Assembly (NCBI GenBank): GCA_039801225.1
Contig: JBDRUH010000035.1
Span: forward strand, 1-15,979
Source: a candidate division WOR-3 bacterium
GTDB lineage: Bacteria > Hydrothermota > Tepidihabitantia > Tepidihabitantales > Tepidihabitantaceae
Reading direction: 5' to 3'
DNA length: 15,979 bases
Part shown: positions 5,533 through 15,054 of the stretch, in pieces
Layout of the letters: each line of letters opens with the position of its first letter
Numbering within the stretch: position 1 is the first letter of the stretch
Notes under the pieces: model-generated
The model's input: only the letters and a program-made list of their open reading frames with translations
What the model was told of the DNA's origin: nothing
The model's database searches: none
Translations under genes and position numbers: made by a program

Positions 5533-6608
5533 ATTTTCACCTCCTGAATTGGCTGCGTTGACCGGTTGTGGGAGGAATCGAGCGTCTTTTGCCCAATGCC
5601 TACCGTCCACATATCAATGAGCACAAAAGGCTCGGGATGTCCGGTAAGAATCGCCACATCAATTAAATAAAGTTTTTCCAGTGCCCGGTTTATCCCTTCT
5701 TCACTCCAGAGATTAAGCGCCTCTTGTGGCGCCCGCCATAGCCGCCCAATTGACCATTCTCCGGTCTTCACTCTTAAAAGGTCAATCAGCGCATGAGTTA
5801 GCCAGGCGATTATTGTCACCGGCTCCTCACCCAACTTCTCCAGTCGGCGGAGAACCTTCAGCGCGGTAACCGTGTCCCGCAGGGTTACCAACCTCACATA
5901 CTCCCCTAACTCAAATGCCCGACTCATTCCCGCATAACGCCGGATCGCATTCTCATCAACCGTCTCACCGGCGCTAAAAATTACACCCAACTTCCGCAGT
6001 TCCCCTTTAAGCACACCAGTATCTTCACCGCAGGTTGCCACTAAAAACTCCAGTACCTCCGGTGTTATTCTCAAGCCCAACTCCTTTGCCTGGACCTGTA
6101 AAAACTTCACCAACCCCTCACCCTGAGGTGGCTGACAATCCACAATCGCGCTCTCCTCGCCAACCCCCTGCAGTATATTAGCTATTCGCCTGTTCAGACC
6201 TCCCCAAGGTGTCCGGTAATCCTCGCTGTAGAAAACCACCGCTGTTGCGCTATTAGGGGTATGTTTCAGACCGGTAAAGAGTTCACTATTCAACTTCTCG
6301 GAAAGCACCTGGATATCCCGGATGACCATTAGCCTTCTTTTTGAACTGAAGGCTGGTTGCCGGGTGCGCTGAATCAAAAGCGCTATCGGCAATTCGGCAC
6401 CGATATCTTTACCATAGACCGTCTCGTAGTCAAACGCCTCCATCCCTGGGGAAACTAATTTCTCCTTCAAAATTTGCACTATTGCCTCGCCTCTCTCCCG
6501 GTCTTCTCCTAACAGGAGATAAACCGGGCGAATTTTCCCAGTTGCAATCTCCTTGATGATACTCTCTGGCGAGTAAAATTCTTTCTTTTTTTCTTTTACC
6601 ACTGCCAC
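5529..6608 (-). CDS. holA: DNA polymerase III subunit delta
   Basis: PVYLLLGED N-terminal motif, 'PAFSSKRRLMVIRD' resembling the HolA 'pffg.rrlvvv' motif, ELRKL, about 350 aa, adjacent to leuS as is common. The start may be the second GTG at 6602. Confidence 0.85.
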   Translation of the reverse strand: MAVVKEKKKEFYSPESIIKEIATGKIRPVYLLLGEDRERGEAIVQILKEKLVSPGMEAFDYETVYGKDIGAELPIALLIQRTRQPAFSSKRRLMVIRDIQVLSEKLNSELFTGLKHTPNSATAVVFYSEDYRTPWGGLNRRIANILQGVGEESAIVDCQPPQGEGLVKFLQVQAKELGLRITPEVLEFLVATCGEDTGVLKGELRKLGVIFSAGETVDENAIRRYAGMSRAFELGEYVRLVTLRDTVTALKVLRRLEKLGEEPVTIIAWLTHALIDLLRVKTGEWSIGRLWRAPQEALNLWSEEGINRALEKLYLIDVAILTGHPEPFVLIDMWTVGIGQKTLDSSHNRSTQPIQEVKI

Positions 6609-6609
6609 A

Positions 6610-6637
6610 ATTTTAACCAGTATTCAACTCCGGTCAA
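6610..6637 (-). promoter_or_regulatory. Putative sigma70-type promoter for the holA-leuS-guaA operon
   Basis: The minus strand reads TTGACC-N16-TAAAAT. A GTG (6602) lies 7 nt after the -10 box, which suggests a leaderless transcript. Confidence 0.55.
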
Positions 6638-6706
6638 GCCTCAATCTGCTGGCGGCCGCCAGCCGTCACGGGACACGAGCCACGGTAACGGACTACGGCG
6701 TTCCGC

Positions 6707-6734
6707 TTGATTTTCCTTTGAAATTGGTTAGATT
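6707..6734 (+). promoter_or_regulatory. Putative sigma70-type promoter for the Mut7-C/hutH/ABC operon
   Basis: TTGATT-N16-TAGATT, 9 nt before ATG 6744, with no SD sequence in between. Confidence 0.5.
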
Positions 6735-6743
6735 TTATCCTAA

Positions 6744-7208
6744 ATGAAGCAAGCCAATAAACCCCGACTTTTTTGCGATGTTATGCTGGGCAAACTGGCG
6801 CGTAAGTTGCGCCTTTTAGGGCTGGATGTTCGTTACGAGCGAAATTTGAAAGGAATGACCGCCTATCGTCAAGCAAAGGCTGAAGGCAGGCTGTTTCTTA
6901 CCCGCCAGCACCGTTTTCGCAATATGCCCGATGTTCTTTATGTCAACAGCGATAAAATTGCCGAACAACTGGAACAGATGAGTCGGGTTTTCTCTCTCAA
7001 GGCGAGCGAAGAGGATGCCGAGAGAGGCATATTGACGAGGTGTTCAGTTTGCAATGAGTCTTTAATAAAGATCACCCGGGAGCAGGCAAGACCCGGAATC
7101 CCATTTTATATCTATCAGATCCACAATAATTTCCGCCGGTGTCCCAAATGCCAACGGATTTACTGGCCGGGTAGCCATATTCAGGAAATTCTAAAGAAAG
7201 GAGTTTAA
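6744..7208 (+). CDS. Mut7-C RNase domain protein (PIN-like fold plus Zn ribbon, DUF82-type)
   Basis: CDVMLGKLARKLRLLGLD N-terminus, LFLTR, TRCSVCN and RCPKCQRIYWPGSH zinc-ribbon motifs. Confidence 0.9.
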   Translation: MKQANKPRLFCDVMLGKLARKLRLLGLDVRYERNLKGMTAYRQAKAEGRLFLTRQHRFRNMPDVLYVNSDKIAEQLEQMSRVFSLKASEEDAERGILTRCSVCNESLIKITREQARPGIPFYIYQIHNNFRRCPKCQRIYWPGSHIQEILKKGV

Positions 7209-8731
7209 TGACGGTGGTAATTGATGGTAAAAGTTTAAGTATAGAAAGTTTAGTCCGAGTTGCCCGGGAGCGGGAGAAGGTGGAACTTTCTCAAGAGGCC
7301 CGGGAGCGAATTGCCCGCTGTAGAAGTTTTGTGGAAAAAAAGATTGCCGAGCGGGCGGTAATGTATGGGATAACCACCGGCATCGGTGAACTGTCCGAGG
7401 TAATTCTCACCCCGGAGCAAACCCGACAGTTTCAAAGGTATTTAGTTTATTCCCATTCTGCCGGTTGCGGTGAGCCGTTACCCGAGGAGGTAGTCAGAGC
7501 CGGGATGTGCTCGCGGGTCAATGTATTAGCGATTGGTAATTCGGGAATCAGATTGAAGGTTGTGGAAACGCTGGTGGAAATGTTAAATAAAGGTGTAACG
7601 CCGGTGGTTTTTGATCGGGGCTCGGTTGGCGCCTGCGGCGACCTTTCGCCGATGAGCCAGATGGCTCTGGTGCTTTTGGGTGAGGGTGAGGCGTTTTATC
7701 AGGGGAAACGGCTGAGCGGTGCCGAGGCGATGAAAAGGGCTGGTATTGAAATAATTGAGTTTGAGGCTCGCGATGGTCTGGCAACAATCAACGGCTCAAA
7801 TATGACCGCTGGTATGGGCGCCCTGCAACTTTTTGACGCCAGCCGATTCTTTAAAACTTCCGAGATTGCTGCCGCGCTAACATTAGAGGTCCTCAACGCC
7901 AATATGGCGGCATATGACGAACGGATTCACAAAGTGCGGGGCTATGCCGGTGCGGTCACCTGCGCTGAGAACATCAGGCGCCTGACAGAGGGGTCGGAGA
8001 TGCTCAAACAACCGGGCAAGAAAGTTCAGGACGCCTATTCGCTTCGCTCCACTCCCCAGGTGGTGGGTGGTGCCAAGGATGCGCTAAAATGGGCGCGGCA
8101 GATGTTTGAAACTGAGTTAAATGGCGTCGGTGATAACCCGCTCTTTTTCCCGGATGATGAGGCATATCTCACCGGCGCCAACTTTCAGGGGACACCTTTG
8201 GCACTGGCGCTGGATTTGGTTGGCTCGGCAGTAACGATGATTGCCGTTCTTTGCGAACGCCGAACAAATCGGCTCTTAAATCGCAACCTTTCAGTAGGGC
8301 TGCCGGCTTTCTTAACCAAGGGTGCCGGAATGTTTTCCGGTTTGATGCTCACCCAGTATACTCAAGGAATGCTTATCTGCGAAAACCGAATTCTCTCCGC
8401 GCCAGCCGCGACCGGCTCAATTCCCGCTGCTGCCGACCAGGAGGACTTTGTCTCAATGTCCTTTACCTCAGCCCTGAAGACCCAGCGAATTCTTGACAAC
8501 GCCTGGTATGTGGTAGCGATTGAACTGTTAGCCGGTGCCCAGGCGGTTGAGTTCCGTAAACCTTTGCAGTTAGGTAAGGGGACAAAGGTGGTTTACGAAC
8601 TTATCCGTCAGGAGGTGCCGAAATTGGATGAAGACCGCCCTTTGCAGTATGATATCAACCGCCTCACCCAACTGGTGCGCTCCGGTAGACTCTTGCAAGC
8701 GGTTGAGGCTGAAGTCGGTCCTTTGCAGTAA
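7208..8731 (+). CDS. hutH: Histidine ammonia-lyase-like MIO-dependent aromatic amino acid ammonia-lyase
   Basis: YGITTGIG, LVYSHSAG (His-type selectivity residue), GSVGACGDL MIO loop, LATING, QDAYSLR..PQV, DNP, QEDFVSM. Overlaps the upstream stop (TAATG). Confidence 0.8.
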   Translation: MTVVIDGKSLSIESLVRVAREREKVELSQEARERIARCRSFVEKKIAERAVMYGITTGIGELSEVILTPEQTRQFQRYLVYSHSAGCGEPLPEEVVRAGMCSRVNVLAIGNSGIRLKVVETLVEMLNKGVTPVVFDRGSVGACGDLSPMSQMALVLLGEGEAFYQGKRLSGAEAMKRAGIEIIEFEARDGLATINGSNMTAGMGALQLFDASRFFKTSEIAAALTLEVLNANMAAYDERIHKVRGYAGAVTCAENIRRLTEGSEMLKQPGKKVQDAYSLRSTPQVVGGAKDALKWARQMFETELNGVGDNPLFFPDDEAYLTGANFQGTPLALALDLVGSAVTMIAVLCERRTNRLLNRNLSVGLPAFLTKGAGMFSGLMLTQYTQGMLICENRILSAPAATGSIPAAADQEDFVSMSFTSALKTQRILDNAWYVVAIELLAGAQAVEFRKPLQLGKGTKVVYELIRQEVPKLDEDRPLQYDINRLTQLVRSGRLLQAVEAEVGPLQ

Positions 8732-10841: not shown

Positions 10842-12071
10842 TCAGTTGCTCACAACTACCCTTACGCTCTCCTTACCTGACCTTAAGATATAAACACCGG
10901 GCTGAGAAACCGGAATAAGGTTTGCGCCTTTGGTAACTGAGAATTTGCCAACCGCCCTTCCGGAAGCGTCAAAAACCTTAACCTGAGCATCTTCAGCCGA
11001 CTGCAGCGCGATTGACTGTTTGCAGGGGTTAGCAAGAACCCGCAGCGCCCCTTTGCTGGATGTTGCCCTTCTTCCTTCTTCTATCCCGACAATTTCCGAC
11101 TGCTTGAGAATTGTGCCCACGGCACCGACCGCATAGCCAACGAATAACTCTGCCTCAATCGGATAGGGTGGCACAAACCAGACCCCGCGTAAATTCATCT
11201 CTGTCCCACTAGGCTGGGGGTTCCACAACGGCCCACCTTGATTTACAAATATCTGCCCACCAGCGCCAACCACATATGCCCGATTCATATCTTTGGGGAC
11301 AGAGACCCCATAGAATATCTGGTCCTCAGGTAGTTGCGCCCTGGTCCAAGTTTTCCCGGTATCCCGTGTGGCAAAGACAAAAGAGTCGCCAACGATATAG
11401 CCTGAAGAGGGGTCGCCGGGAGCGAAACAGATACCGGTCCAGTTGGGTGATTTGCCGACACTGAGTAACTCAAAACTGGCACCGCCATTAAGCGTCCGGG
11501 CAGCAAATCCGTTTCGCCCTAACACAAAACCGATTTGTTCCGTGGGAAAGTGCACCATATTACCCATCGCCATCGGCCAGGTGCTCAGTTCATATTTCAC
11601 CCAGGATTGTCCGCCGTTGGTGGTTTTGAATACCCTAGTACCGCCATTCCTTCGGCAACCGGCAATATAGCCAACATCACTACTGGGAAAGTGAACACCA
11701 GCCAGGTCAAGGGTCTCTGGAGCGGCACCGATATCTATAGATGTCCAGGTTGCACCGCCGTCGGTTGTTTTCCGCACGCTATTGAAACCACCCACGATAA
11801 ATCCGGTATTGTTGTCGGTAAACCAGACCGAAGCCCAGGTCAAAAAACCGCCTGGCGAGATATCAACCCATTCTGCTCCAGCGTTGGTAGTCTTCAAAAC
11901 GGTGCCCATCATTCCAACCGCATAGCCCACCGTGTCATTTACCGGAAAGTGAACTGCACTGAGGTCGTTTGTTGTACCGGAGTTCAGGGGAACCCAGGTG
12001 GCAAATAAGAGGGTGCCAGGGACAAGGAGCAGGGTGAGAACTACTGAAGAGACGCGCTTTTTAAAAAACAT
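10842..12071 (-). CDS. Secreted YCF48/BNR (Asp-box) beta-propeller protein with a T9SS-like C-terminal sorting domain
   Basis: AGGAGG RBS and signal peptide. Repeats KTTNAGAEW, KTTDGGATW, KTTNGGQSW, RTLNGGASF, ATRDTGKTW with YCF48-like 'L.AVHF...GYAVG..G'. C-terminus GIEE...NP...VKVFDASGR...GVYILR...RVVV. Confidence 0.88.
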   Translation of the reverse strand: MFFKKRVSSVVLTLLLVPGTLLFATWVPLNSGTTNDLSAVHFPVNDTVGYAVGMMGTVLKTTNAGAEWVDISPGGFLTWASVWFTDNNTGFIVGGFNSVRKTTDGGATWTSIDIGAAPETLDLAGVHFPSSDVGYIAGCRRNGGTRVFKTTNGGQSWVKYELSTWPMAMGNMVHFPTEQIGFVLGRNGFAARTLNGGASFELLSVGKSPNWTGICFAPGDPSSGYIVGDSFVFATRDTGKTWTRAQLPEDQIFYGVSVPKDMNRAYVVGAGGQIFVNQGGPLWNPQPSGTEMNLRGVWFVPPYPIEAELFVGYAVGAVGTILKQSEIVGIEEGRRATSSKGALRVLANPCKQSIALQSAEDAQVKVFDASGRAVGKFSVTKGANLIPVSQPGVYILRSGKESVRVVVSN

Positions 12072-12178: not shown

Positions 12179-12210
12179 TTTCCACAGGAGTGGCGCTTAA
12201 CATTGATAAC

Positions 12211-12238
12211 AATATACTCAACAATTCCCATTTGTCAA
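12211..12238 (-). promoter_or_regulatory. Putative sigma70-type promoter for the 409-aa gene
   Basis: The minus strand reads TTGACA-N16-TATATT, immediately downstream of the upstream gene's terminator. Confidence 0.65.
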
Positions 12239-12251
12239 CAAGTTGCACATT

Positions 12252-12287
12252 AAATAAAAAGGGGCGACCAGATCTGGTCGCCCCTTT
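12252..12287 (-). terminator. Intrinsic terminator of the capsid-like gene
   Basis: Perfect 30-bp palindrome AAAGGGGCGACCAGATCTGGTCGCCCCTTT (12258-12287), 3 nt after the TAA stop. On the minus strand the GC stem is followed by TTTTTATTT. Confidence 0.85.
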
Positions 12288-12290
12288 CTC

Positions 12291-12659
12291 TTACGGACCT
12301 GGCGGACTGATGGTGAAAACCTGTTCACGAATCGCCTCCAGAACCGGCTGCGCCAGACCACGCGCCACCCACTTCTGCATCAGCACATTCACCTCCCGCA
12401 TCAGCGAATCGCCGGAAATACCCTGTCGCTGCAAACGCCACAACTCCCGGGCAAAGTTCAGATAGAACGGATAGTTAATCGTCGCAACACTTTCACCATC
12501 AAGCACCTGCTTCACCTGTGTCTCCAGCGCCACAATCTCAGGAAAGGTAGCCTGCATATTCGCCACCATCGTTGAGCGCAACTCCTCAAGAATCGCCTTG
12601 ATTCGTTCTGGAGAGGTCTTAGCGCTCCACCTGGCAATCCGCTTCAAGAGATTACTCAT
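12291..12659 (-). CDS. 122-aa alpha-helical protein resembling the major capsid protein of rudiviruses/Adnaviria (SIRV2-type fold)
   Basis: Start reassigned to ATG 12659 (AAAGGAGGTG RBS at 12675-12666), with a terminator directly after the stop. By-eye colinear match to the SIRV2 coat protein recalled from memory: R.A.W.AK, P....IL, N.Q...P, V..VL, Y..F, SG..L...N.L, VL.A. That this is a real CDS is highly likely; the family call is moderately confident. Confidence 0.7.
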   Translation of the reverse strand: MSNLLKRIARWSAKTSPERIKAILEELRSTMVANMQATFPEIVALETQVKQVLDGESVATINYPFYLNFARELWRLQRQGISGDSLMREVNVLMQKWVARGLAQPVLEAIREQVFTISPPGP

Positions 12660-12665
12660 TTTAAA

Positions 12666-12742
12666 CACCTCCTTTCTGCGGCAGATTTTCTCTAGCGCCG
12701 TCCTTGCCGCATTAAGGACGGTCGTTTTTCCTCTCCGACCAT
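12666..12742 (-). promoter_or_regulatory. Structured 5' leader (hairpin plus possible pseudoknot) abutting the SD of the capsid-like gene
   Basis: Stem CCGUCCUU/AAGGACGG (12721-12698). Its loop UGCGGC is complementary to GCCGCA (12682-12677) next to the SD. A competing stem AUGGUCG/CGACCGU lies upstream. Confidence 0.4.
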
Positions 12743-12877
12743 TAAGACCCAAAAACGGGAAAATATTAACGGGTGAACTTGAATGGGCTATCAGCCCTTG
12801 CTGTAGATTTTACTCAGGATGCCAAATAACCGATTAGAGCGGTTGGTCTCTCCTCTTTCTCTTAGACAACGCCTCTT

Positions 12878-12972
12878 TGTAGGGCAAGGCTTCAGCCTTG
12901 CCTCCCTTTTTCTCTATGGAACCTGCCCGAATCGGGTAGAGGATGGACGCAAACCTAAAGGTTTGCCCTACA
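12878..12972. repeat. GTAG-family REP doublet (REPIN/MITE-like)
   Basis: TGTAG-GGCAAGGCT-TC-AGCCTTGCC at 12878-12902 and, inverted, TGTAGG-GCAAACCT-TT-AGGTTTGC at 12972-12949. Shared terminal inverted repeat TGTAGGGCAA. Confidence 0.7.
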
Positions 12973-12995
12973 GCCCATTAAAGGCAAAATTCAGT

Positions 12996-13985
12996 TTATC
13001 TTGTTATAAGTATCGCCTTTCCGCCAATGTTAGCCCCTTGCTGTTTCAGCCGTAGGATATAAATCCCTGCCGGAAGCGAATTGATGTTCACCGTCCATTT
13101 CTTCTCTTTGTCCGCGGAAGAGAGTTCCAGTCTCTTGACCAGTCTACCTGCCCGGTCATAAAGTTCGCATAAAACCGGTTGACAATTTCTGGTCTGGGCA
13201 TAGGCGGTAATAGTTAAGGTGTTCCGACAGGGATTAGGTTTCACTTCAACCCGCCCGAGCACCGCTGCCATTTGGTAGCCACCAATTCCAATAGGTGGAG
13301 CAGAGGCGAAGATTCCAGCGCCGTTCGTCCCGGCAAATACCCTTGGATTCGCACCACCCCGTACCGCTATTGACAGGATATTGACACTGGTCAGCCCCTC
13401 GTTCACCTGCTGCCAGGTAATACCGGCATCGGTCGTAAGATATACCCCAGAACTGGTGCCGGCATAGATGACACTTTCATTTTCCGGTAGAACACCCAGC
13501 GCCCGCACATTAGTGAAAGAACCGATAAGAGTCCAGGTAGTTCCACCATCATTTGATTGGAAAACACCCTGACTGGTGCCGGCATACCAGCATTCACTCC
13601 CGGCAATAAGAGCGTAAACCGCGCCAATAAGTCCATCCCCGGTATGAACCCAGGTGGCGCCGAGGTCGGTGCTCTTAAGAAGCAGTTTGTAGGAATAAAG
13701 AGAATCACCGCCTATTATGATGTGGTTGGGGTCAGAAGGGTCAATTAACAACGCATTGGCGCGGGCGATAGAGTCAGGCAGAGTGTCAAGGAACCAGGTG
13801 GCACCACCATCGGTCGTCCAAGAGGTTTGAATCCGATAGGCACCATTAATATAACCATAGCCAGCGGTAAATATTATGTCCGGATTGGTTGGTACTACTC
13901 CTAATGCGGCACCATCAGTGAGATAACTTGCTTGTTGTATCCAGACGGACCCGCCGTCTGTGCTCTTAAAGAGCTCGGCGTTTCC
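12996..13985 (-). CDS. C-terminal fragment of the split beta-propeller gene with a T9SS-like CTD
   Basis: The frame is open from 13985 (GNAELFKSTDGGSVW...TTDGGATW...) into the 251-aa ORF at 12996-13751. Confidence 0.6.
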   Translation of the reverse strand, partial: GNAELFKSTDGGSVWIQQASYLTDGAALGVVPTNPDIIFTAGYGYINGAYRIQTSWTTDGGATWFLDTLPDSIARANALLIDPSDPNHIIIGGDSLYSYKLLLKSTDLGATWVHTGDGLIGAVYALIAGSECWYAGTSQGVFQSNDGGTTWTLIGSFTNVRALGVLPENESVIYAGTSSGVYLTTDAGITWQQVNEGLTSVNILSIAVRGGANPRVFAGTNGAGIFASAPPIGIGGYQMAAVLGRVEVKPNPCRNTLTITAYAQTRNCQPVLCELYDRAGRLVKRLELSSADKEKKWTVNINSLPAGIYILRLKQQGANIGGKAILITR

Positions 13986-14402
13986 TCAACCTGACCCCTC
14001 CAACGCCCAGACCGTTGCCGGGTCAAACGGATGCACCGCCATTGCGCAGATATTACCGCAGGAAAGGAACTCCGGACACCTTTCCCAGGTGTTACCATTA
14101 TCAAACGAGCGATAGACCGCATTGTCCTGACATTCGGTGTAAATCGTATTGTCATCCCCGGCCAGAGCGAGCACCTTTATTTTGTTAAAAGAGAAATTGC
14201 CCGATATCTCCTGCCAGGTATTACCAAAATCGGTGGAACGAAAGATGCCGGCTTTTGTTCCACAGTAAACCGTGCCACTTGTCATTGGGTGAGGCAATAA
14301 CGCATACAATAAACCACCATATATTCCGGTGCCTATCTCAACCCAGGTTGCACCACTGTCGGTGCTTCTATAGAGCCTGCTACTGGTGGTGGCATAAAGT
14401 AT
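13986..14402 (-). CDS. Middle fragment of the split beta-propeller gene, ending at the in-frame TGA
   Basis: ILYATTSSRLYRSTDSGATW, RSTDFGNTW, RSFDNGNTW...VWALEGSG*. No credible start of its own. Confidence 0.5.
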   Translation of the reverse strand: MLYATTSSRLYRSTDSGATWVEIGTGIYGGLLYALLPHPMTSGTVYCGTKAGIFRSTDFGNTWQEISGNFSFNKIKVLALAGDDNTIYTECQDNAVYRSFDNGNTWERCPEFLSCGNICAMAVHPFDPATVWALEGSG

Positions 14403-15009
14403 CGCCGCAGTCACTTGACCGGTGCAGCGTCGTTGCGCCAATCCCGCGATACCCACCGACATATATCACATTGGTGTCAATTGGGTCAACAGCCAACGAA
14501 TAGCCATAGGAAGGGGCGGCGGTGTCACAGAAAAAAACCTGCCAGTTAACCCCGGCGTTAATTGAACGGGCAAGCACCGTCCGATAAACACTGCCGGCGT
14601 AATTATAACCGACCGCATAGAGGACCTCGGGGTTAAGCGGATTAAATCTCAGCGCCCGAAAATAGTTGCTACTCGGCAGAGAATAGACGCTCCAGGATGC
14701 GCCACCATTAGTGGTTTTATAAAGCGCGGCGCCGGTAAGGGCATAAACCACCTCCGGGTCACTCGGGTGAACCAATATATTCTGAGGATAGGTTGGAATC
14801 TGTCCTGAGGTAAAAAACCAACTTTCTCCGCCATTGGTTGACTTTACCAAATTGGCCGGACTGGCATAAGGAGCAAGGTAGATTGTTGGCGGGTCAGCAG
14901 TGGCGATGCCTCCAGAATAGATTGGACCGCCATTTGGTCCAATTGCTGTCCAGGCACTAAAACCGACAGCCACAACCACTGGCATTAACACAATAAAGGC
15001 GCGCATCAT
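14380..15009 (-). CDS. N-terminal fragment of the split beta-propeller gene (signal peptide plus BNR repeats)
   Basis: MMRAFIVLMPVVVAVGFSAWTAIGPNGG, KSTNGGESW, KTTNGGASW, RSINAGVNW. The frame is lost after RSSDCGDT. Confidence 0.6.
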   Translation of the reverse strand: MMRAFIVLMPVVVAVGFSAWTAIGPNGGPIYSGGIATADPPTIYLAPYASPANLVKSTNGGESWFFTSGQIPTYPQNILVHPSDPEVVYALTGAALYKTTNGGASWSVYSLPSSNYFRALRFNPLNPEVLYAVGYNYAGSVYRTVLARSINAGVNWQVFFCDTAAPSYGYSLAVDPIDTNVIYVGGYRGIGATTLHRSSDCGDTLCHHQ

Positions 15010-15025
15010 TTTACTCCTTTGAGAA

Positions 15026-15054
15026 AAATTAACCGATAATTCGCCACCAGTCAA
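15026..15054 (-). promoter_or_regulatory. Putative promoter of the split beta-propeller gene
   Basis: Minus strand TTGACT-N17-TAATTT just upstream of the AAGGAG RBS. Confidence 0.45.

Follow-up and report, generated by a model that had tools for sequence, protein, structure and literature searches.

A chromosomal family of adnavirus-type capsid protein homologues conserved across one order of WOR-3-type bacteria

The stretch of DNA analysed in this study (the window) consists of the 15,979 nucleotides of contig JBDRUH010000035.1 in assembly GCA_039801225.1 of a candidate division WOR-3 bacterium, and it contains a gene for a 122-aa protein, P0001, that is homologous to the major capsid protein of the Adnaviria, the archaeal viruses whose coat is typified by that of SIRV2 (rod-shaped virus 2 of Sulfolobus islandicus). 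There is very little doubt about this homology. P0001 is a homologue of a capsid protein and not part of a virus; it is very probably a functional cellular gene, and the family to which it belongs is conserved, expanded, chromosomally inherited and fixed in one order of WOR-3-type bacteria. The evidence for homology is presented below, followed by the distribution and genomic context of the family, a group of small circular contigs that carry related coat genes, and the possible functions of the protein.

Taken alone, P0001 matched the Pfam family PF12193 (Sulfolobus virus coat protein, Sulf_coat_C) over residues 6-112 with an E value of 3.3e-5 and a score of 24.5 bits, which is 0.7 bits under the gathering cut-off of 25.2 bits, and it matched the SIRV2 virion protein (PDB entry 3j9x) over its whole length with an E value of 0.0011. 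Among the 49 aligned homologues of alignment A1, 42 matched PF12193 at E<=0.01 (best E value 4.6e-9), and no other Pfam family was matched by any of the 49 members. A Pfam scan of P0001 at E<=10 returned only PF12193, PF21733 and PF21660, with no family of small acid-soluble spore proteins (SASPs) and no Bac_DNA_binding (HU/IHF-type) match. Searched against the PDB, the A1 profile found the coat proteins of SSRV1 (rod-shaped virus 1 of Saccharolobus solfataricus; 6wq0) and SIRV2 (3j9x) at an E value of 1.1e-4, with weaker matches to those of Acidianus filamentous virus 1 (AFV1) and Sulfolobus filamentous virus 1 (SFV1). An hhalign comparison of A1 with six rudiviral coat proteins from GenBank gave a probability of 96.2% and an E value of 2.6e-9 over 107 columns, with 25% identity. 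By its sequence profile, P0001 falls within the SIRV2-type capsid fold family represented by PF12193.

The AlphaFold2 model of P0001, built on A1, had a predicted local distance difference test score of 92.6 and placed helices at residues 2-14, 17-55, 60-78, 83-99 and 104-113; in the predicted architecture, a helical bundle comes after a long N-terminal helix (17-55), that is, the N-terminal arm and C-terminal bundle of the SIRV2-type fold. When the model was compared with the PDB using Foldseek, the nine best matches were all adnavirus coat proteins, with template modelling (TM) scores of 0.81 and 0.77 over 120 columns for the match to 3j9x. A comparison with 48,161 chains by VIA-align, which is independent of Foldseek, likewise placed adnavirus coat proteins in the first seven positions (Z 13.2-8.2), led by 6wq0 with a Z score of 13.2 over 120 residues, while the coat protein of Pyrobaculum filamentous virus 2 (PFV2) scored Z 6.5. 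No anti-sigma structure appeared among the Foldseek matches listed or the 50 best of VIA-align, which describes those matches and is not an exclusion. The ESM Atlas contained the P0001 sequence and offered no usable neighbour for it. With the PF12193 profile, the hhalign comparison and the predicted fold in agreement, the likeness to the SIRV2 coat protein noted in an initial annotation of the window goes far beyond chance, and the profile and fold comparisons proposed there as checks led to the same group of proteins.

Compared to the rudiviral coat proteins (SIRV2 gp26/ORF134, 3j9x; SSRV1, 6wq0), P0001 is of the same length class (122 versus 134 aa) and has the same predicted fold; the proteins can be aligned in register over their whole length and have the motifs R..KW.AKF, Y..G, GP/SG and VL(D/E)A in common. 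However, identity is only 18-25%, and P0001 is encoded on a bacterial chromosome among housekeeping genes instead of on a linear archaeal virus genome, with at least two paralogues per genome and no glycosyltransferase or virion genes nearby. The fold of P0001 also matches the two-paralogue coats of the Lipothrixviridae, Tristromaviridae and Ahmunviridae (AFV1, 5w7g; SFV1, 6d5f; Sulfolobus islandicus filamentous virus, 6wq2; PFV2, 6v7b) with Z scores of 11.4-6.5. Like these heterodimer-forming viruses, the bacterial family has at least two diverged types of paralogue per genome, although the two paralogues of the source assembly lie on different contigs and are not adjacent. P0001 is not placed in the realm Adnaviria, which is characterised by linear dsDNA genomes of archaeal viruses with terminal inverted repeats and virion genes, because its gene lies on a bacterial chromosome together with GMP synthase, leucyl-tRNA synthetase and transporter genes.

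The coordinates of the gene and its signals are collected in Table 1. The 122-aa open reading frame (ORF) claimed in the initial annotation is real; its strand, which had not been given, is minus, with an ATG start codon at 12659-12657, and the protein sequence that had been quoted was correct in the residues given, lacking the last seven of a C-terminus that reads ...FTISPPGP. The near-perfect Shine-Dalgarno (SD) site and the gene's own terminator, placed right after the stop codon, are both present as described. The description of the gene as stand-alone holds in that it is monocistronic here, but not in that it is one of two paralogues in the genome and a member of a large multigene family. 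Pfam scans of 14 other ORFs of the window identified only cellular genes, in line with the absence of viral genes stated in the initial annotation: the domains found were those of a GNAT acetyltransferase, GMP synthase, leucyl-tRNA synthetase, Mut7-C, an aromatic amino-acid lyase, an ABC-2 transporter and several BNR/Sortilin-type proteins, one of which carries a type-9-secretion sorting tail. None of these 14 ORFs was recognised as a gene for an integrase, for replication, for a glycosyltransferase or for a virion protein.

The family is not confined to the window. Within the source assembly (1.50 Mb in 72 contigs, 88.8% complete, 48% G+C), a second paralogue of 121 aa with 41% identity to P0001 was identified at C6:39641-40003 (the C6 paralogue), in a region that reads, from translations only, as TonB/ExbBD-type and other cellular genes; Pfam recognised one domain of unknown function and nothing else in the three ORFs beside it. 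A word-indexed database search yielded 78 homologues of P0001, nearly all of 121-125 aa, on contigs of up to 327 kb, and the named sources among them were metagenome-assembled genomes labelled 'candidate division WOR-3 bacterium' or 'bacterium'. When 1.84 billion cluster representatives were searched exhaustively with HMMER, 607 of them matched at E<=1e-3 and 144 at E<=1e-10. At the level of the phylum, 36 of 201 genomes contained family matches, the source assembly included. These comprised all 35 of the other genomes sampled from the window's order (19 of 19, 4 of 4, 3 of 3, 8 of 8 and 1 of 1 in families f1 to f5, respectively), while none of the 165 genomes from other orders of the phylum had a match. 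Thus the search for homologues and their neighbourhoods suggested by the initial annotation returned a paralogue in the same genome, presence throughout the order and non-viral surroundings. Automated annotation has already touched the family, since precomputed PF12193 labels are attached to three database proteins belonging to it.

A quick tree of the chromosomal proteins resolved three groups, namely the window's clade (9 rows), a neighbouring clade (43 rows) and a third clade (43 rows); the first two are here called type 1, and the third, which contains the C6 paralogue, type 2. The number of matches per genome in the order ranged from 2 to 21, and at least five small genomes besides the source assembly had exactly two, one strong and one weaker to the type-1 profile. 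The ratio of nonsynonymous to synonymous substitution rates (dN/dS) was 0.08-0.35 in 21 pairs within the window's clade and 0.11-0.26 between P0001 and six orthologues, values to be read with most pairs saturated at synonymous sites (the least saturated had a dS of 0.33 and a dN of 0.03). Gene neighbourhoods were kept within genera, and apart from two weak paralogous matches to surface proteins, the other ORFs of the window had no counterpart at 14 loci from other genera, those of the best-matching copies in as many genomes, which leaves P0001 with no definable positional orthologue outside the genus. One genome contained 22 copies across 16 loci, whose neighbours included housekeeping genes (Rho, EF-G, ClpB, succinyl-CoA ligase and urocanase) and secreted beta-propeller proteins, as well as two Eco57I-type restriction-modification genes, Fic/DOC, a nucleotidyltransferase, HTH_31 proteins and an M78 peptidase. 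The surroundings of these 16 loci showed no genes for virion proteins, integrases or replication.

Departures from the usual copy number and length were also noted. In the genus g95 (G219-G229), with genomes of 2.6-4.7 Mb, up to 19 matches per genome were obtained even with the weak profile of the B-type coat gene described below, which suggests that the largest expansions of the family are found there. Among metagenomic relatives, P0156 (258 aa) joins two capsid-like domains head to tail, seen as two matched stretches, and P0167 and P0226 are each extended at the C-terminus by a beta-rich part of about 100 aa. A section of a recent preprint (10.1101/2025.08.23.671958) describes archaeal-virus coats with a beta extension or a fusion, which recall these three proteins.

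In other genomes, family genes are associated with genes for sigma factors. The set examined consisted of 89 loci with 129 family ORFs, and because these loci are partly redundant, some regions being present twice, the association is a qualitative enrichment. The commonest neighbour was a sigma-like protein of 170-320 aa (26 ORFs at 26 loci, from at least two families of the order), and Sigma70 region 2 and/or region 4 was recognised in 21 of the 23 sigma-like neighbours scanned, some of which also matched the model for extracytoplasmic function (ECF) sigma factors. Thirty-seven of the 129 family ORFs lay no more than three genes from an ECF-like sigma gene on the same strand. A recurrent cassette on one strand consists of one to three family genes, the sigma gene and one further family gene (examples in Table 1), with gaps of 0 to about 320 nt, often 90-320 nt, between the sigma gene and the downstream copy, which carries its own conserved upstream leader. 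At locus L038, for example, the sigma gene occupies 6467-7135 and its downstream copy 7226-7597. Nineteen rows of the tree have a sigma gene upstream, and 17 of these fell in the clade adjoining that of the window; of the eight that have one downstream, seven fell in one type 2 sub-clade. Some cassettes have an extra ORF of 88-122 aa, or one of 251-274 aa with a weak match to phrog_14939, between the sigma gene and the downstream copy. The window contains no sigma gene, and the two ECF-like sigma genes of the source assembly (C17:8230-8805 and C8:6488-7009) adjoin no family gene.

The upstream region of P0001 contains a box of about 42 nt, made up of TTAATA, a 17-nt spacer and CTTAAT within GTCTTAATGG, and a near-identical box lies 5' of the C6 paralogue; in the 1.5-Mb assembly, the full box with an ORF behind it was found only at these two genes. 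A degenerate form of the box had 13 matches in 1.51 Mb of loci, of which 11 preceded a type-1 or type-2 gene by 30-81 nt and none preceded a sigma gene; because the pattern was derived from the same sequences, this count measures specificity and is not an independent discovery. A standard sigma-70 scan found no promoter upstream of P0001, and the GTC-containing -10 element of its box is one that we take to resemble ECF-type promoters. P0001 and the C6 paralogue are probably co-regulated from a private promoter outside the sigma-70 consensus.

Between the box and the start codon, the transcript leader is also conserved. The GAAAGGAGGTG context of the P0001 SD site recurs before most of 49 non-redundant type-1 genes. 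In the window's clade, RNAalifold folded nine orthologous leaders into a hairpin with a 10-pair stem, 8 pairs of which are retained through two-sided changes in at least one sequence. The near-invariant loop of this hairpin, GCGGCA(G), is complementary to a 7-mer, CTGCCGC, that is identical in eight of the nine leaders and differs by one base in the ninth (L034), and RNAalifold alternatively pairs the CTGCCGC stretch with the SD site. A leader pseudoknot, in which the loop would pair with CTGCCGC, or an SD-masking helix or switch is therefore possible, with both pairings put forward as inference because they rest on almost invariant bases. Rfam found no family at threshold in positions 12200-13050, where the weak matches corresponded to the terminator hairpin.

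Related coat genes were also found on a group of small virus-like contigs. A scan of GTDB genomes turned up five short contigs (L108, L110, L111, L113 and L114), binned to unrelated phyla, in which two or three family genes lie about 10 nt apart, and a metagenome scan with a profile of the first coat gene (A5) gave 158 relatives, from which 80 loci (L118-L197) were kept. Across the resulting 85 loci, 72 had exactly two adjacent family genes and 8 had three, in the order GT2 glycosyltransferase, A (about 120 aa), B (about 126 aa) and a large ORF. Further conserved ORFs encode GT1 glycosyltransferases, a D12 (Dam-type) methyltransferase, a lectin-like Laminin_G_3 protein and one whose C-terminal domain is SO2946-like, while most ORFs of these contigs had no Pfam or PHROG match. 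A section of the preprint cited above (10.1101/2025.08.23.671958) reports that SIRV2-like coat genes in viruses of Nitrososphaeria typically lie beside a glycosyltransferase gene. Four of the contigs (L125, L122, L165 and L132; 7.1-10.8 kb) assemble as circles, as their ends are exact direct repeats of 79 or 127 nt, and four longer ones have imperfect end overlaps with implied units of 10-15 kb. With the A1 profile, the median scores were 88.9 bits for A-type proteins, 38.7 for B-type and 22.2 for rudiviruses, so that by profile score the A-type gene is nearest to the chromosomal family; on the five contigs found first, identity to P0001 is 34-40%, and the motif YPFYL.FGRE is common to the family and the contig coat genes. 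The B-type profile itself matched SIRV2 in the PDB at an E value of 2e-4, and SSRV1 and AFV1 as well. In contrast to the P0001 locus, which has no such neighbours and lies in a genome of 48% G+C, the contigs encode glycosyltransferases, the Dam-type methyltransferase and the lectin-like protein and have 60-66% G+C. Neither the A1 nor the A5 profile found relatives in IMG/VR, and when P0001 was searched by tblastn in 50,697 records of phages and archaeal viruses, the only match was at chance level (E value 6). Integrated copies of the circular elements were sought in 66 genomes of the order and rejected, as the B-type profile scored at most 48 bits there, always at known chromosomal copies; because no true B-type gene was present in these genomes, nothing links the circular elements to WOR-3 hosts. 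The tandem-coat circular contigs may represent a new group related to the Adnaviria with non-linear genomes.

The origin of the bacterial family was approached with two quick trees. In the first, rooted on the rudiviral coats, the chromosomal clade stood beside the A-type proteins, with one long-branch chromosomal row outside it. In the second, from which 7 rows were dropped (including five long-branch rows and one locus with swapped gene order), the chromosomal clade was monophyletic (42 rows; Shimodaira-Hasegawa-like approximate likelihood ratio support 100) and again beside the A-type, with support of 81. Most likely, the ancestor of the order acquired the family from a virus-like element and domesticated it. 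Transfer from virus to cell is inferred because the cellular family is confined to one order, while the fold spans several archaeal virus families and the circular elements. The trees themselves do not settle the direction of transfer, as an approximately unbiased (AU) test did not reject a grouping of the chromosomal clade with the B-type instead (the tree obtained had a log-likelihood 25.3 higher; p-AU 0.885).

As to function, the reading favoured here, albeit tentatively, is a DNA-coating or nucleoid role, of which DNA binding, dimerisation, an A-form effect and stress control would all be parts. P0001 would retain the ancestral activity of the capsid fold: long N-terminal helices with the conserved R..W..K motif would bind and wrap double-stranded DNA (dsDNA) without sequence specificity, probably as a dimer. 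This would make P0001 a nucleoid-associated or DNA-protecting protein that is small, basic and translated at a high level, and an alternative sigma factor would turn on its expression, as happens with spore SASPs or Dps. In virions, the N-terminal arm of the adnavirus coat fold wraps DNA, and DNA coating is favoured because the whole fold, including this arm, has been kept. It is also favoured because the R..KW.AKF motif (RIAKW.AKF in bacteria versus RYAKWQAKF in viruses), which lies in the arm and is the best conserved across groups, is maintained, and because the proteins are mostly basic: P0001 has an isoelectric point (pI) of 9.6, and a set of 201 proteins of 100-135 aa that consists almost entirely of family members has a median pI of 9.2 and a median net charge of +3. 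The consensus SD site, monocistronic layout and own terminator look built for high expression, and the natural tandem fusion in P0156 fits a dimeric unit; both are further reasons for this preference. Alternative-sigma control is expected because of the private non-sigma-70 promoter here and the ECF sigma linkage in other genomes. The alpha/beta-type SASPs of Bacillota are small, multi-copy, scattered and monocistronic, with a strong ribosome-binding site and transcription by an alternative sigma factor, and they coat dsDNA and shift it towards the A-form. The similar organisation of the P0001 family (multi-copy, scattered, monocistronic and with proposed alternative-sigma control) also argues for DNA coating, although the likeness is one of gene organisation and proposed action only, with no kinship in sequence or fold. 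A complex prediction for P0001 (A1) with the C6 paralogue (A7) scored 0.27 against a mark of 0.32, in a run without controls, and so speaks neither for nor against their pairing.

Several observations weigh against DNA coating. The net charge of P0001 is only +3 (+2 in residues 1-55 and +1 in the rest), and some family members are acidic, with a pI down to 5.05. The source assembly also has an HU-type gene (C40:8858-9124), so the family fills no obvious gap, and the idea that it replaces HU was rejected for the same reason. Expansions to about 20 copies near restriction-modification, Fic/DOC, HTH_31 and M78 genes look more like regulators or defence, the sigma linkage fits a regulatory partner (anti-sigma-like or regulon effector) equally well, and neither copy in the source assembly adjoins a sigma gene.

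There are several potential alternatives to a DNA-coating role. The family could be a regulatory partner of ECF sigma factors, whether an anti-sigma factor, a sigma modulator or the main effector of a small regulon, with no general coating of DNA. Small all-helical proteins encoded downstream of ECF sigma factors are typically anti-sigma factors, ECF-like sigma genes have relatives of P0001 directly downstream of them, and upstream as well, in the same orientation, the cassette recurs (26 of 89 loci, with Sigma70 regions 2/4 in 21 of 23 sigma-like ORFs), and the window's clade adjoins the one that holds 17 of the 19 copies directly downstream of a sigma gene. However, the often long gaps and the leader of its own that the downstream copy carries are unlike the usual tight coupling of anti-sigma genes, the small ORF or the 251-274 aa ORF that intervenes in some cassettes could be the real anti-sigma factor, and the two copies of the source assembly are far from its two ECF-like sigma genes, P0001 itself having no adjacent sigma gene. 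This alternative is considered unlikely, though it deserves more weight than those that follow. It is less probable still that the family is a domesticated antiviral capsid, acting as a decoy or dominant-negative against filamentous adnavirus-like viruses or coating incoming DNA. Capsid-derived restriction factors provide the analogy, and a lineage-specific and variable expansion (2-21 matches per genome), copies beside the Eco57I-type restriction-modification, Fic/DOC, nucleotidyltransferase, HTH_31 and M78 genes of the 22-copy genome, and the existence of circular virus-like contigs with closely related coat pairs would all be in keeping with it. On the other hand, many copies lie among housekeeping genes, purifying selection (dN/dS 0.08-0.35) acts on the two core paralogues, which have no arms-race signature, no element-type B coat gene was found in the 66 genomes of the order (best 48 bits, at known copies), and no adnavirus-like bacterial virus is described in the profile by the virus taxonomy committee ICTV (PMC12282232) or in the part of a 2024 review drawn on here (PMC10848233).

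Two further explanations would remove the cellular role or the kinship altogether. P0001 could be a structural gene, either left over or still working, of a virus or other mobile element that has integrated in these bacteria and gone unrecognised; the fold is otherwise known from virions alone (PMC12282232), and the genes are multi-copy and scattered, the window copy not being syntenic with 14 loci of other genera. This is very improbable, as no integrase, replication, glycosyltransferase or other element genes surround P0001, its C6 paralogue or the 16 loci in the genome with 22 copies, all 35 other genomes of the order carry the family, selection is purifying, positions are stable within genera, most members have a length of 121-125 aa and scans of IMG/VR found no relatives. 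The initial annotation had offered, besides domestication, a trace of an unknown bacterial Adnaviria-like element, which is possible for the origin of the family but misfits a gene kept in 35 of 35 genomes under purifying selection. Hardly credible is the last alternative, in which the capsid likeness is convergence or chance between helical bundles with no Adnaviria kinship. P0001 alone does fall just short of the PF12193 gathering cut-off, and helical proteins often get middling structural scores; nevertheless, 42 of 49 members match PF12193, the hhalign comparison (96%) has the motifs in register over 107 columns, the TM score of 0.81 applies to the full length including the N-terminal arm, and only adnavirus coats occupy the top seven to nine positions of two independent searches.

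These findings bear on how isolated the adnavirus coat protein is perceived to be. The 2025 ICTV profile describes it as a unique fold unseen in other viruses and gives the Adnaviria archaeal hosts only and linear genomes of 17.6-41.5 kb (PMC12282232), and a passage of the 2024 review states that adnavirians are apparently unconnected to viruses of bacteria or eukaryotes (PMC10848233). By title and abstract, no published bacterial homologues of the adnavirus coat were found and no papers combined Adnaviria with WOR-3, so that an earlier mention is possible; for PF12193/Sulf_coat_C, only the archaeal-virus preprint was found. A conserved and expanded bacterial chromosomal family ends the isolation of this fold, gives a handle on where the adnavirus capsid protein came from or went, and is a possible new example of the domestication of a capsid by cells. 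In addition, the circular tandem-coat elements add to the range of genome architectures known for the SIRV2-type fold, and P0001, as an easily expressed protein of 122 aa, is suited to testing A-form DNA wrapping as a cellular chromatin strategy. The most far-reaching picture would be that an adnavirus-like coat, captured across the order and present as at least two co-regulated paralogues, wraps parts of the chromosome as a capsid would, possibly in the A-form, on an alternative-sigma signal, and that the circular elements are a new group related to the Adnaviria, with circular instead of linear genomes and possibly with bacteria as hosts; taken as a whole, this is doubtful. If the chromosome-wrapping reading is true, a fold believed to be confined to the filamentous viruses of archaea would have in these proteins its first members from cells and its first from bacteria.

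Table 1. Coordinates of P0001, its expression signals and sigma-gene cassettes of relatives (window positions unless a locus is named)
Feature	Position	Strand	Details and basis
P0001 coding sequence (122 aa, capsid-like; type 1 paralogue)	12291..12659	minus	translation; stop codon 12291-12293
Shine-Dalgarno site AAAGGAGGTG	12666..12675	minus	6 nt before the ATG; from sequence
CTGCCGC 7-mer	12678..12684	minus	just 5' of the SD site; complementary to the hairpin loop, partly to the SD site
5'-leader hairpin	12696..12724	minus	arms 12724-12716 and 12703-12696; loop 12715-12704 with GCGGCA; RNAalifold, 9 leaders
Promoter-like box	12731..12772	minus	-35-like TTAATA 12769-12764; -10-like GTCTTAAT 12748-12741
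Intrinsic terminator	12256..12289	minus	15-bp stem with 8 G-C pairs, T-run; terminator scan
Example sigma cassettes	L092:3432-5372; L096:1-2506; L076:2500-5357; L048:3531-7372; L038:6467-7597		

Public sequencing runs gave no evidence on expression of the locus. No match to it was found in one true RNA run. A hot-spring run that is filed as metatranscriptomic but is probably DNA contained small contigs at >=95% identity, including one of 170 nt that spans positions 12534-12703 with 2 mismatched letters.

Two other features of the window were noted. Three consecutive, partly overlapping ORFs of 224, 158 and 251 aa at 12996-15054 on the minus strand all match BNR/Sortilin repeats, with the secretion sorting tail only on the last of them; a single surface-protein gene, broken up by frameshifts or by errors of assembly, may lie behind all three. 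Directly past the P0001 terminator, also on the minus strand, there is a near-consensus sigma-70 promoter at 12211-12238 (TTGACA, 16 nt, TATATT; 11 of 12 matches), which presumably serves the BNR/Ycf48-like gene at 10842-12071.

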